Both the position numbers and the translations under genes were made by a program. This document shows positions 12,328 to 52,932 of a stretch of DNA of 64,000 bases, one piece after another. Within the stretch, counting starts at the first letter, position 1. Every line of letters begins with the position of its first letter. The stretch covers positions 17,467 through 81,466 of the forward strand of contig JAFGLO010000007.1 of NCBI GenBank assembly GCA_016927995.1, in the 5' to 3' direction. The stretch is from Candidatus Dojkabacteria bacterium (GTDB taxonomy: Bacteria > Patescibacteriota > Dojkabacteria > JAFGLO01). The notes under the pieces were generated by a model. The model had not been told where the DNA came from, searched no databases, and saw nothing but the letters and a program-made list of their open reading frames with translations.

Positions 12328-12789
12328 TTAAACAGAAAACTTGTCCTTGATTGAGGGACTTATCGACTGCAGGATGTTTATCAGCCTCGCAATATCCTTT
12401 TCATCAAAAAGTTTATATCCAAAAAATACCTTGGTTCTTTTGTTCTCAGAAATAAAAACAATTACCACGCTACCTTTACGACGCACGTGTTCCTCAATAA
12501 CAGATATGTCCGAGATTAAAATAGACTGGACCGAAACTAGCTGCTTCACCACCAGATAATCATTCTCTATGATAACTTTCGTTGTTATCATATATAGTCC
12601 AAAACTGATACCTATAATAATCATGCAAAATACAGACAGTGCAAAGGGAGTAATGACATCCAGTTGACCATCGAAAACAAGTATTGAGAGAAACAAAAAC
12701 ATAAAAATGAATCCACCTAACAGGCTATTCACAAATACGGCCTTTTTATAGCTTGGCCGAATGATTAATTTTGTTATTTTTTCTTCCAT
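12328..12789 (-). CDS. Membrane protein, possible bacterial PH (bPH/YdbT-like) domain protein
   Basis: The first 36 codons of the track ORF are Arg/Cys-rich and look non-coding, so the start is taken at Met37 (MEEKITKL). Two TM helices followed by a soluble domain. Confidence 0.4.
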   Translation of the reverse strand: MEEKITKLIIRPSYKKAVFVNSLLGGFIFMFLFLSILVFDGQLDVITPFALSVFCMIIIGISFGLYMITTKVIIENDYLVVKQLVSVQSILISDISVIEEHVRRKGSVVIVFISENKRTKVFFGYKLFDEKDIARLINILQSISPSIKDKFSV

Positions 12790-13011
12790 GTTTCTTGTAA
12801 GTATCAGACCTCCAAATCGGAGTGGTCGTCGCAATGACCTTGCTGCGACGAAACAAACATGTTGTGCTAAAGCACAACGACAAAGCCTCTTAAGCAAAGC
12901 TAATCCCAGCCCGCAAACCCTTAAGCGGGCTAACTTTCCCTAGAAAGGGAAAAATTTGATAAGAACGGTCGTGGAGTTCAATCACACTACTTCCATAATG
13001 TAAAGATCAAA

Positions 13012-13085
13012 TCGGAGTGGTGGGACTCGAACCCACGACCTCACGGTCCCAAACCGTGCATTCTAGCCAACTGAACTACACTCCG
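13012..13085 (-). tRNA. tRNA-Pro (anticodon TGG)
   Basis: Reverse complement CGGAGTGTAGTTCAGTTGGCTAGAATGCACGGTTTGGGACCGTGAGGTCGTGGGTTCGAGTCCCACCACTCCGA folds as a cloverleaf. Anticodon loop is TTTGGGA with a GTTCGAGTC T-loop. Confidence 0.85.
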
Positions 13086-13320
13086 CTTTTTGATAGAACT
13101 TGTCTCGCTTAAATCGGCTTCTTTTTATTTCAAGCTCGTACTTTCTTGCCTGCTCAATTGTATCAAATCTTTCATAATATATTAATCTCCATTGAGAAGA
13201 TCTTTTAGTATAATTACTTCTCTTACTATTATGCTCTTCCGTTCTTCTCTTCAAATTTGTTGTTGAACCAACATACCTTTCTCCAAACTCGTTTTCTAGC
13301 AAATATACAAAACCACTCAT
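13063..13320 (-). CDS. GIY-YIG nuclease superfamily protein (YhbQ/UPF0213-like)
   Basis: FVYLLENEFGERYVGSTTNLKRRTEEHN matches the GIY-YIG core (compare E. coli YhbQ [27 protein letters not shown]). The last 8 codons read into the tRNA-Pro 5' end and stop at the D-loop TAG. Confidence 0.7.
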   Translation of the reverse strand: MSGFVYLLENEFGERYVGSTTNLKRRTEEHNSKRSNYTKRSSQWRLIYYERFDTIEQARKYELEIKRSRFKRDKFYQKAECSSVG

Positions 13321-13336
13321 AACTTTAAATCACGGT

Positions 13337-13394
13337 CCTCTATCTGTCGATAGACAGGCAAACCGTGCATTCTAGCCAACTGAACTACACTCCG
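13337..13394 (-). pseudogene. Truncated duplicate of tRNA-Pro (positions 1 to about 44) with a 20-nt hairpin inserted in the anticodon loop
   Basis: 35 nt identical to tRNA-Pro 5' half (13360-13394 vs 13051-13085). TCTATCTGTCGATAGACAGG is inserted between anticodon-loop residues. The sequence continues GGACCGTGA and then diverges, with no T-arm. Confidence 0.6.
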
Positions 13395-13590
13395 TATATG
13401 CTATTATTATACAATAAACAAGCAGAAATAGTAACACTTATCTGATAAAATATACAGTATGAAAACACTCCTATTAGACATAGATGAAACACTTTTAGAC
13501 CATTCGATCTGGTCACCAGCACGAAATAATCATATTGCAGACATCTTGGGTAGGTCAACAAATTAATTCCTTAACTGAACTACTATACAT

Positions 13591-14019
13591 ATGAGACTCT
13601 GGTCAATACACCCCAAATATCTAGACGCCAAAGGACTTATAGCACTGTGGAGAGAATCACTTTTAGCAAAAGCCGTTTTGGAAGGAAAAACCAAGGGTTA
13701 TAAAAATCATCCACAACTTATAAGATTTAAAAACTCAAGTAATCCCAAGTCCCTGATCAATAACTACTTAGAGCACATTCACAAAGAAGCCAGTCGTAGG
13801 GGATATTCATTTTCAAAATATAAATACCGGGAAGTAGATCCCCAACCCAAGATAGCTATAACTAGGGGGCAGTTAGATTTTGAACTAAACCATTTACTCA
13901 AAAAATTGAGGAGTAGGGCACCACAATTCTATAAAGTCCTTAGAGCTACAGGGAAAATATATCCACACCCGATATTTAAGTTAATCAAGGGACCCATATC
14001 AGAGTGGGAGAAGTTTTGA
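13591..14019 (+). CDS. Pyrimidine-dimer DNA glycosylase-like protein (PF03013-like), tentative
   Basis: N-terminus MRLWSIHPKYLDAKGLIALWRE...KGYKNHPQL recalled as typical of this family; 142 aa. Confidence 0.4.
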   Translation: MRLWSIHPKYLDAKGLIALWRESLLAKAVLEGKTKGYKNHPQLIRFKNSSNPKSLINNYLEHIHKEASRRGYSFSKYKYREVDPQPKIAITRGQLDFELNHLLKKLRSRAPQFYKVLRATGKIYPHPIFKLIKGPISEWEKF

Positions 14020-24487: not shown

Positions 24488-24527
24488 TAAGGGTGCGGTC
24501 CGCCTCTGGTGGACCGCACCCTTTTTT
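24488..24527 (+). terminator. Rho-independent terminator
   Basis: GGGTGCGGTCCGCCTCTGGTGGACCGCACCC stem-loop followed by TTTTTTT. Confidence 0.65.
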
Positions 24528-52644: not shown

Positions 52645-52770
52645 TTTGTATATAATTTATTTTATTTTTTGTTTACAATGAACTGCCAGCGGAAGCCGAG
52701 ATCTTTCCCTACTCGGCTTAGATCAATGGAACCAGTTACTATTCCCACTGCTGACCAAATGTCAATGAAC

Positions 52771-52854
52771 TGCCAGCGGTGGGAATCGAACCCACACCTT
52801 CTTGCGAAGACGGGATTTTGAGTCCCGCGTGTCTACCAATTCCACCACGCTGGC
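52771..52854 (-). tRNA. tRNA-Leu (anticodon CAA), long variable arm
   Basis: Reverse complement GCCAGCGTGGTGGAATTGGTAGACACGCGGGACTCAAAATCCCGTCTTCGCAAGAAGGTGTGGGTTCGATTCCCACCGCTGGCA; anticodon loop CTCAAAA. Confidence 0.85.
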
Positions 52855-52932
52855 AAAAAGTCTTTGTACATACTATAAACAAAAACTTCCGTCCAACTTG
52901 TAATTTTATCACAGAACCTACTTAGGATAAAG

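Follow-up and report, generated by a model that had tools for sequence, protein, structure and literature searches.

What leaves a nuclease gene between a broken and an intact copy of the same tRNA gene? The question is raised by a locus on the minus strand of a 64,000-nucleotide (nt) stretch of DNA from a Candidatus Dojkabacteria bacterium (contig JAFGLO010000007.1), which we call the window and whose positions we use throughout. Here, an open reading frame (ORF) for a small GIY-YIG nuclease lies between the 5' part of a tRNA-Pro gene (nt 1-45) and a complete tRNA-Pro gene, and thus one working tRNA is preserved. About 20 further loci, at tRNA-Pro, Glu, Gln, Ser, Ala, Tyr, Cys and Leu, have the same layout. 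We think it probable that this locus exemplifies a recurrent kind of selfish cassette, in which a tRNA gene harbors the gene for a minimal Slx1/UPF0213-like GIY-YIG nuclease. In our best reading, the cassette is tolerated because one intact copy of the tRNA is kept.

Organization of the tRNA-Pro locus

Read along the minus strand, the locus consists of a 5' tRNA-Pro fragment with a 20-nt insert, the GIY-YIG ORF, the intact tRNA, a cluster of hairpins and a 14-nt repeat. Its tRNA and nuclease parts are:

13359..13394, minus strand: 5' pseudo-copy of tRNA-Pro, nt 1-36, 36/36 identical to 13050-13085
13339..13358, minus strand: 20-nt palindromic module CCTGTCTATCGACAGATAGA, inserted between anticodon bases 2 and 3 of the pseudo-copy
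13330..13338, minus strand: tRNA-Pro nt 37-45 (GGACCGTGA), which complete the anticodon stem of the pseudo-copy
13063..13320, minus strand: GIY-YIG nuclease gene, 85 amino acids (aa), UPF0213/Slx1-like (Pfam PF01541, E = 9.5e-15)
13012..13085, minus strand: intact tRNA-Pro(TGG) (ARAGORN; Rfam RF00005, 67.9 bits)

A sequence-only reading of this DNA had described four elements here, and all are present at the positions that it gave or within a few bases of them. The tRNA-Pro(TGG) that it placed at 13085-13012 is the functional copy and has no encoded CCA. It is the only copy that ARAGORN and Rfam call; neither makes a call on the interrupted one. The partial copy does contain acceptor, D and anticodon arms and no T-arm, but it ends at 13330 rather than at 13337, and it is identical to the intact gene over 36 nt rather than 35. 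The insert had been taken for a perfect 20-nt hairpin inside the anticodon loop. Its position stands, but the hairpin is not fully perfect: CCTGTCTATCGACAGATAGA is made of two interleaved hairpins of 5-6 bp, CTGTC/GACAG and TCTATC/GATAGA.

The pseudo-copy starts 309 nt upstream of the intact tRNA and spans the acceptor 5' strand, the D-arm, and the anticodon stem and loop through anticodon base 2. The module follows, and together with the anticodon stem it folds into one extended hairpin. tRNA homology stops right after that stem, with no variable region and no acceptor 3' strand adjacent. There is a single copy of CCTGTCTATCGACAGATAGA in the window, with 0 expected by chance. We also considered the 20-mer as a promoter of the ORF (TCGACA plus a downstream TAAAGT/TATAAT had been flagged) and rejected this, as the -10 abuts the start codon both in the window and in a related locus, L042.

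Could the interrupted copy be a functional intron-containing or split tRNA, with the 20-nt insert removed from the RNA? The insert sits at a fixed position in the anticodon loop and is extremely conserved, as such a reading would have it. However, we find the idea hardly credible. The interrupted copy does not extend past nt 45, every locus has an intact copy alongside, and in one relative (L001) the 20-mer also lies in the D-loop of a fragment. Cis-splicing of the interrupted copy is refuted by this anatomy. A group I intron was rejected as well, since a 20-nt insert is too short for a group I core, the 'exon 2' that follows is 9 nt, and no Rfam intron matches even at E <= 10. An archaeal-type (bulge-helix-bulge) intron or a split tRNA fails on the missing T-arm and the adjacent intact copy, and to our knowledge bacteria are without the archaeal splicing endonuclease. 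Thus, the earlier suggestion of an intron-like insertion does not hold. Rfam found only tRNAs in the window region (E <= 10) and in 11 related loci (at the gathering threshold), and has no match for the 20-mer, for an 87-nt insert in a tRNA-Glu locus (L002, below) or for the 181-nt stretch downstream of the tRNA.

A minimal Slx1/UPF0213-like nuclease fused to a tRNA gene

The ORF starts nine bases after the end of the pseudo-copy. It had been described as ending inside the 5' end of the intact tRNA, and it does: the overlap is 23 nt (tRNA nt 1-23), and the stop codon is the TAG of the tRNA D-loop.

The Pfam PF01541 match (55.1 bits against a cut-off of 22.6) places the protein in the GIY-YIG superfamily, and residues Y6, Y16, G18, R26, H30 and E62 are invariant in an alignment of relatives. 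The protein is a catalytic core plus a C-terminal helix. It has no separate DNA-binding domain and in this departs from homing endonucleases of the I-TevI/Seg type; a match to the NCBIfam model grpIintron_endo covers residues 3-37 only and is far under the cut-off. In sequence-profile searches of the PDB, the best matches are the UPF0213 entries 1zg2 (3e-16) and 1ywl (2e-13), followed by SLX1. An AF2 model (predicted local distance difference test, pLDDT, 86.8) gave the same proteins in the same order as the top Foldseek matches. The closest solved relatives are the UPF0213 proteins BH0048 and EF2693 and then the structure-specific nuclease Slx1, and I-TevI is marginal by sequence profile (E = 0.0033) and absent among the fold matches. 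The protein therefore belongs to the UPF0213/Slx1-like branch, whose members are stand-alone catalytic cores of 80-100 aa.

An initial word-index protein search returned the query itself as its sole match, and a look-up of the exact protein sequence matched no contig. An exhaustive HMMER search found 2,284 relatives, just 12 of them below 1e-10. The C-termini of many of these relatives are translated tRNA 5' ends (for example, ..SSVG and GVAQLASA..), and these tails were the first hint that the tRNA fusion recurs.

The cassette in close relatives

Dojkabacteria are a lineage of the candidate phyla radiation (CPR). The same cassette is present at tRNA-Pro(TGG) in three other independent, Dojkabacteria-like assemblies: a Dojkabacteria metagenome-assembled genome (MAG; L001), a microbial mat (L042/L043) and marine sediment (L044). 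Assembly error, which had been named as a possible objection, is excluded by this shared layout. The ORFs of these loci are 51-58% identical to that of the window. Positions 13023-13371 of the window align colinearly with L042 at 73% nucleotide identity, in the order 5' fragment, 20-mer, GGACCGAG, ORF ending in ..SSVG, and intact tRNA. L044 shares this order and in addition repeats the tRNA 3' end twice further downstream, each time right after a hairpin. L001 is arranged differently. A 5' fragment with the 20-mer in both D-loop and anticodon loop is followed by the intact tRNA, the ORF and a 3' fragment (nt 27-74), which has the 20-mer in its anticodon loop again. Comparison with related genomes, as the sequence-only reading had proposed, thus shows that the cassette recurs but that its arrangement varies.

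The 20-mer occupies the identical anticodon position in all of these loci (twice in L001). All seven tRNA-embedded 20-mers are identical, and the host tRNA-Pro genes have a mean column identity of 91%, with differences in the acceptor, anticodon and T stems. The plug is more conserved than its host tRNA and is the most conserved part of the arrangement across genomes. In another locus, L045, a variant of the 20-mer (CCTGTCTACCGATAGGTAGA) keeps the 6-bp stem by a compensatory double change.

A gene that is so well kept might be a domesticated, vertically inherited member of a tRNA operon, for example a repair or processing nuclease, with the 5' fragment and hairpin as its leader or operator and no mobility today. 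I-TevI uses a mimic of its homing site as an operator. Purifying selection is suggested by how strictly the 20-mer and the catalytic residues are conserved, and all sampled Dojkabacteria-like relatives have the ORF at tRNA-Pro. However, the ORF precedes the tRNA in the window, L042 and L044 and follows it in L001 and L028; in L045, it lies in the spacer between tRNA-Leu and tRNA-Pro. Copies in L003, L028 and L030 are degenerate, and in L028 the tRNA is followed by a truncated, decayed ORF. Within one ORF clade (below), the host tRNA switches among Gln, Tyr and three Ser isoacceptors. We therefore regard domestication as an improbable explanation, and a recurrent cassette as the better one.

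One neighbor in L042, whose cassette is the closest relative, is of a different kind. A Transposase_mut (IS256-like) gene (positions 656-1540 of that locus) lies on the opposite strand, 40 nt downstream of tRNA-Pro, and the tRNA-Pro flanks seem to be a general landing zone in L042.

Recurrence at other tRNAs

A 4-sequence protein alignment was the query for related loci, and the genome-collection scan gave 35. In the subfamily of 80-90 aa, a same-strand tRNA lies near the ORF in 17 of the 35, within 100 nt in 16 of these and at 123 nt in L007; the tRNA is tRNA-Pro in 11 of the 17. Partial copies of the linked tRNA flank the ORF in 14 of the 17 loci, as well as in L042, L044, L045, L047 and L050.

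The common order is a 5' part of the tRNA, a GC-rich palindrome in its D- or anticodon loop, the rest of the arm, the AT-rich ORF and the intact tRNA. Often, the intact tRNA is followed either by a hairpin and a repeat of the 3' end or by a 3' fragment that carries the palindrome again. For example, at tRNA-Glu in L002, nt 1-35, an 87-nt insert and nt 36-44 precede the ORF and intact tRNA, and a further fragment downstream consists of nt 20-35, the same 87-nt insert and nt 36-73. At tRNA-Gln in L023, nt 1-34, a 31-nt insert and nt 35-48 precede the ORF and tRNA. At tRNA-Pro in L027, L035 and L032, a palindrome of 27-30 nt lies in the D-loop, and at tRNA-Ala in L047, nt 1-26 are followed by a 20-nt hairpin. 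At tRNA-Ser(GCT) in L050, the second of two GIY-YIG ORFs has the entire layout of the window, down to a hairpin that is immediately followed by a 15-nt repeat of the tRNA 3' end.

In 12 loci, the last 10-26 nt of the ORF lie within the tRNA; where the overlap was read (about half of the 12), the ORF ends with the TAG of the D-loop. The plug lies 10-35 nt from the ORF start in most loci. The break in the anticodon loop falls exactly between bases 2 and 3 in tRNA-Pro, Glu and Gln, and within 2 nt of this point in tRNA-Cys and tRNA-Leu(TAA) of L045; other breaks are in the D-arm. By a rough estimate of about (1/7)^4, five independent tRNAs are unlikely to share one of seven loop positions by chance.

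Several of these loci have further peculiarities. At positions 1439-1512 of L047, ARAGORN reports a false 'tRNA-Val(TAC)' made of tRNA-Ala nt 1-26 and a hairpin that mimics an anticodon arm, running into the start of the GIY-YIG gene. At 1740-1960 of L045 (also in L046), a second complete tRNA-Cys, with an unusual T-loop, interrupts a tRNA-Cys whose T-arm is canonical. The split follows anticodon base 2, at 36|37, and both the upstream and the downstream flanks are duplicated. The outer 5' fragment carries the compensatory variant of the 20-mer in its D-loop, in the opposite orientation. These nested fragments have a palindrome and no ORF between them.

Small GIY-YIG genes appear to accumulate in tRNA clusters. 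Two different ones share a cluster in L050/L051 (1501-2510) and in L045 (2170-2840). In the first, a Veblenbacteria locus, each gene precedes a tRNA-Ser; in the second, one gene, with an in-frame stop, lies before tRNA-Leu and the other after it. A relative is also found on a viral contig from IMG/VR (L054, ORF 1501-1737), within a phage tRNA array (Val, Pro, Leu, Ala ... Met, Arg), and phages are a possible route for horizontal spread. Lastly, two ORFs at tRNA-Pro(GGG) are 73% identical, one in a genome labelled Bathyarchaeia (L033) and one in a genome labelled Pseudomonadales (L031). We do not claim a transfer between domains: the tRNA-Pro of L033 has the bacterial C1-G72 pair and AT-rich flanks, and its archaeal label is probably a binning error.

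Palindrome families follow the nuclease, not the tRNA

Clustering of 21 tRNA-linked ORFs gave five groups, and the type of insert follows the group and not the tRNA. The Dojkabacteria group has the 20-mer. In another group (L021, L026, L032, L027 and L035), CCTG.../GCCTGG... palindromes lie in the D-loop of tRNA-Pro. The inserts of L032 (labelled Doudnabacteria) and of L021 and L026 (labelled Gammaproteobacteria) are near-identical, and that of L027 is the reverse complement of that of L035. A further group (L023, L009, L005, L007 and L050) is found at the Gln, Tyr and Ser tRNAs mentioned above, and the inserts of L023, L009 and L050 are double hairpins of the form (T/C)CNGCC-NNN-GGNNGG. The motif CGAAGCTTTAGCGAAG is common to L032 and L044.

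The 20-mer also occurs outside tRNA genes. Exact matches lie at five distinct intergenic sites of this kind in metagenome contigs (six stretches of that collection), and a scan of viral sequences gave 0 matches. In L038 and L039, it lies in the loop of a pre-existing, unrelated hairpin, which fits structure-directed insertion and indicates that the module is able to sit in hairpin loops generally.

These sites bear on what we consider the strongest alternative, in which two unrelated processes are superimposed. Small, independent GC-rich palindromes, acting as miniature mobile elements or as filler in DNA repair and similar to repetitive extragenic palindromes (REPs), miniature inverted-repeat transposable elements or the 'GC clusters' of mitochondria, would enter any DNA hairpin loop, and the GIY-YIG gene would be an incidental neighbor in the spacers between tRNAs, as phage seg genes are. 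The non-tRNA sites of the 20-mer, two of which clearly occupy loops of other hairpins, are what this alternative predicts. It would also accommodate the nested tRNA-Cys fragments of L045 and the tRNA-Leu gene of the window (below), which has a hairpin and a 3'-end repeat and no ORF. In contrast, independent palindromes would not be expected to track the ORF clade across tRNAs and phylum labels, or to lie so close to the ORF start in most loci. With one copy in the 64 kb of the window, exactly at the cassette, the 20-mer does not look like a genome-wide repeat and is in this unlike a REP-type family. On balance, we think this alternative unlikely and prefer a cassette in which palindrome and nuclease gene belong together.

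Repeats and hairpins downstream of the tRNA

The rest of the locus, downstream of the intact tRNA, consists of:

13008..13021, minus strand: proximal copy of the 14-nt direct repeat ACCACTCCGATTTG (last 2 nt of the T-stem, acceptor 3' strand, discriminator, TTTG)
12827..13007, minus strand: 181-nt spacer with a stem-loop cluster (fold z = -4.24 against shuffles)
12967..12996, plus strand: degenerate inverted copy (21/30) of the tRNA T-arm and acceptor 3' region (marginal significance)
12935-12952, 12908-12931, 12861-12878 and 12826-12851, minus strand: stem-loops of the spacer (hairpin census)
12813..12826, minus strand: distal copy of the 14-nt direct repeat ACCACTCCGATTTG, with a hairpin directly before it

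The sequence-only reading had noted a direct repeat of the tRNA 3' end plus four bases and a hairpin-rich, GC-rich stretch at 12827-13007, and both are borne out. There are exactly two copies of ACCACTCCGATTTG (the last 10 nt of the tRNA plus TTTG), at 13021..13008 and 12826..12813. The spacer has 4 of the 53 perfect hairpins of the window (stem >= 7 bp), all within 127 nt, and a GC content of about 0.44-0.47 compared to 0.37 for the window. The hairpin at 12861-12878 is terminator-like, with a T-rich tail, and that at 12826-12851 abuts the distal repeat. A suggested Rfam check of 12827-13007 gave no match, and a BLAST search with 12700-13450 found no relative of the spacer in any fetched locus, indicating that the spacer is lineage-specific. 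We read the distal repeat as the 3' end of a displaced or duplicated copy of the tRNA. It may be what is left of a displaced outer copy, or a separate hairpin may have inserted with duplication of its target. The inverted copy at 12967..12996 is only possibly a trace of fold-back repair.

Direct repeats of 14-17 nt over a tRNA 3' end and a few flanking bases are typical of the att sites of tyrosine integrases. The repeats could thus be attL and attR of a decayed integrase island, with the 5' fragment as an unrelated duplication, and both tRNA genes of the window have such 3'-end repeats. However, an island should have an integrase and cargo between attL and attR, and here the repeats enclose just 181 nt of hairpins at tRNA-Pro and 70 nt at tRNA-Leu, with no credible coding region and no remnant of an integrase or other ORF. 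The combination of a hairpin and a tRNA 3'-end repeat also recurs elsewhere, in L044 (twice), L007, L050 and the tRNA-Leu of the window. In L007 the repeat flanks the GIY-YIG ORF itself, and in L044 and L050 the repeats follow the cassette, with a clade-typical hairpin directly before them. This recurrence indicates that the repeat is part of the same phenomenon as the cassette and not the scar of a separate island. An island would also leave the 5' fragment, the plug and the fusion of ORF and tRNA unexplained. We consider an att-like scar of integration or excision, one of the original suggestions, to be very improbable.

The only other tRNA gene of the window is tRNA-Leu(CAA) (52855..52770, minus strand). 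A 17-nt sequence made of its 3' end and 8 flanking bases (CCGCTGGCAGTTCATTG) is duplicated, with copies at 52676-52692 and 52763-52779 (a downstream shift of 87 nt) and an 8-bp hairpin (52693-52719) directly before the repeat. There is no ORF and no 5' fragment, and the layout is like that of the 14-nt repeat at tRNA-Pro. The strongest hairpin of the window lies elsewhere, at 24489-24523 (13-bp stem, GC 0.69, loop region CCGCCTCTGGTGG), and resembles motifs near the 20-mer in L038 and L040. We examined it as another module and rejected it. It is followed by T7 and lies between convergent genes, and is an ordinary intrinsic terminator.

Transcription of the cassette and a neighboring gene

One more feature lies at the upstream end of the cassette:

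13406..13434, minus strand: promoter-like site, TTACTA-17 nt-TATAAT (read from the sequence)

Its -10 hexamer and the truncated tRNA copy downstream are separated by 11 nt, and the site scores under the -35 threshold of the promoter tool. Inspection of the sequence revealed no comparable -10 directly before the intact tRNA-Pro, which suggests that fragment, ORF and tRNA are transcribed together. Judging from its sequence, this site is probably the original tRNA promoter, now driving all three. Transcription from the old tRNA promoter would end at the hairpin at 12878-12861. Because the stop codon of the ORF lies within the tRNA, processing by RNase P would remove it and leave a non-stop mRNA, and we speculate that this could keep the level of the nuclease low.

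The gene directly upstream of the cassette is divergent (13591-14019, plus strand) and encodes a pyrimidine-dimer DNA glycosylase (Pfam Pyr_excise, E = 1.5e-22). It is not next to the cassette in relatives, and its adjacency here is probably a coincidence.

A proposed model for how the cassette may spread

Among the explanations that the sequence-only reading had offered, a tandem tRNA duplication disrupted by a mobile nuclease gene comes closest. There is a recurrent GIY-YIG cassette flanked by partial tRNA copies; the mobility is our deduction. We postulate that the nuclease is structure-specific, like Slx1, and cuts tRNA-gene DNA that has folded into stem-loops. It would prefer the anticodon loop (35|36) and would also cut at sites in the D-loop and near the 3' side of the T-stem. 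Repair of the break would copy the cassette into cognate tRNA genes, with the tRNA-derived flanks serving as portable homology arms. The same repair could also yield partial tandem duplications, of which the tRNA-Cys of L045 would be a clean example. Only products with one intact tRNA would survive. The palindromic modules may travel with the ORF as the cis-acting site of the element, and they would also destroy the cut site in the fragments that are left behind.

Several points weigh against this reading. We infer nuclease activity, cut site and mobility from footprints in the sequence alone. The protein has no DNA-binding domain, so the choice of target is left unexplained, and the intact tRNA beside the ORF does not differ in sequence from the presumed target, with no evident mechanism of immunity. 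A subfamily of 94-111 aa from Bacteroidota and Alphaproteobacteria has no linkage to tRNA genes, and the same is true of L048 and L052. Among the contigs with the five non-tRNA sites of the 20-mer, one has a GIY-YIG gene, of another subfamily and 6.5 kb away, and the palindromes may be mobilized by something else. The recovered loci contain no closely related filled and empty pair and no strictly empty tRNA-Pro site, with which ancient vertical inheritance and concerted evolution would be compatible. Lastly, all comparators are MAGs or metagenome contigs, and some of the taxon labels are doubtful (L033).

We also put forward, tentatively, a broader possibility. The cassettes might represent an unrecognized class of mobile element, spread throughout the CPR/Patescibacteria and found in other bacteria, in which the nuclease reads folded tRNA-gene DNA and moves its cognate palindromes into hairpin loops. 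Such a nuclease would recognize the cloverleaf or hairpin form rather than a sequence, and its cuts would fall at set places in the loops (35|36 of the anticodon, and the D-loop). Its place within an essential tRNA gene, an intact copy of which is always regenerated or carried, would let the element persist, and loss of the element would risk loss of the tRNA.

Relation to known systems

Full-text searches of the literature found no description of tRNA-nested small GIY-YIG genes, of their partial tRNA duplications or of loop-specific palindromic plugs, and this kind of cassette looks to be so far undescribed. By analogy, it would work most like a free-standing homing endonuclease gene, and the nearest case may be SegB in the tRNA cluster of phage T4. 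SegB cuts inside the tRNA gene region of a related phage and drives the inheritance of its own gene with the flanking DNA (PMC2330249; PMC8421152). Like the cassette, segB is a GIY-YIG gene among tRNA genes, and the viral relative of the window ORF (L054) is likewise in a phage tRNA array. Seg proteins are longer than 200 aa and have a DNA-binding domain, whereas the protein described here is a catalytic core of 80-85 aa from the Slx1/UPF0213 branch. In addition, fusion to the tRNA, flanking partial tRNA duplications and palindromic plugs at fixed loop positions are not described for seg genes.

The best sequence and structure matches, UPF0213 and prokaryotic Slx1-like proteins (BH0048, EF2693 and YhbQ of E. 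coli), have the size and the conserved Y, Y-G, R, H and E in common with the window protein. They form an uncharacterized branch, for which linkage to tRNA genes or mobility is not reported. In their survey of the superfamily, Dunin-Horkawicz et al. (2006) grouped the UPF0213 cluster with Slx1 and described only a fusion of this branch with a tRNA methyltransferase (PMC1564403).

Other mobile elements use parts of the same strategy. In fungal mitochondria, mobile endonuclease ORFs are likewise selfish genes at the end of an essential gene, where a duplicated segment keeps one functional copy and leaves a pseudo-fragment. These AT-rich genomes also contain short GC-rich palindromes, as clusters or double-hairpin elements, that are often near tRNA genes and are thought to be mobile. 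Examples from mitochondria include atp6 of Allomyces, the PstI palindromes of Neurospora and the GC clusters of yeast. In contrast, the cassettes described here are in bacterial chromosomes, target tRNA genes and encode another subfamily of nuclease, and their palindromes occupy set positions in tRNA loops and vary together with the ORF clade. Islands that use a tyrosine integrase also keep the tRNA by partial duplication and leave direct repeats of its end. Here, however, there is no integrase, the 5' part is duplicated as well, and the repeats enclose only hairpins or the nuclease gene. Similarly, the REP-associated tyrosine transposase (RAYT) systems and the insertion sequences IS200/IS605 recognize and move short palindromes as folded DNA and insert beside or within hairpins, as the 20-mer is found in the loops of hairpins. 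REP/RAYT and IS200/IS605 use HUH/Y1 transposases, whereas here there is a GIY-YIG nuclease and one copy of the palindrome in 64 kb.

Implications

If our reading is correct, the UPF0213/Slx1-like proteins, which are abundant in bacteria (thousands of homologues found), would gain a first biological role. The cassette would represent a new strategy of invasion, in which a selfish gene enters essential tRNA genes without an intron, by means of partial target duplication and palindromic plugs. Its product would be a candidate structure-directed nuclease, with an apparent cut site that is set by tRNA architecture (anticodon bases 2|3) in at least five tRNAs. For annotation, such cassettes would account for pieces of tRNA, false tRNA calls and unusual protein C-termini in CPR genomes. 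They would also make tRNA loci hotspots of rearrangement, and thus of genome instability, in these reduced genomes.

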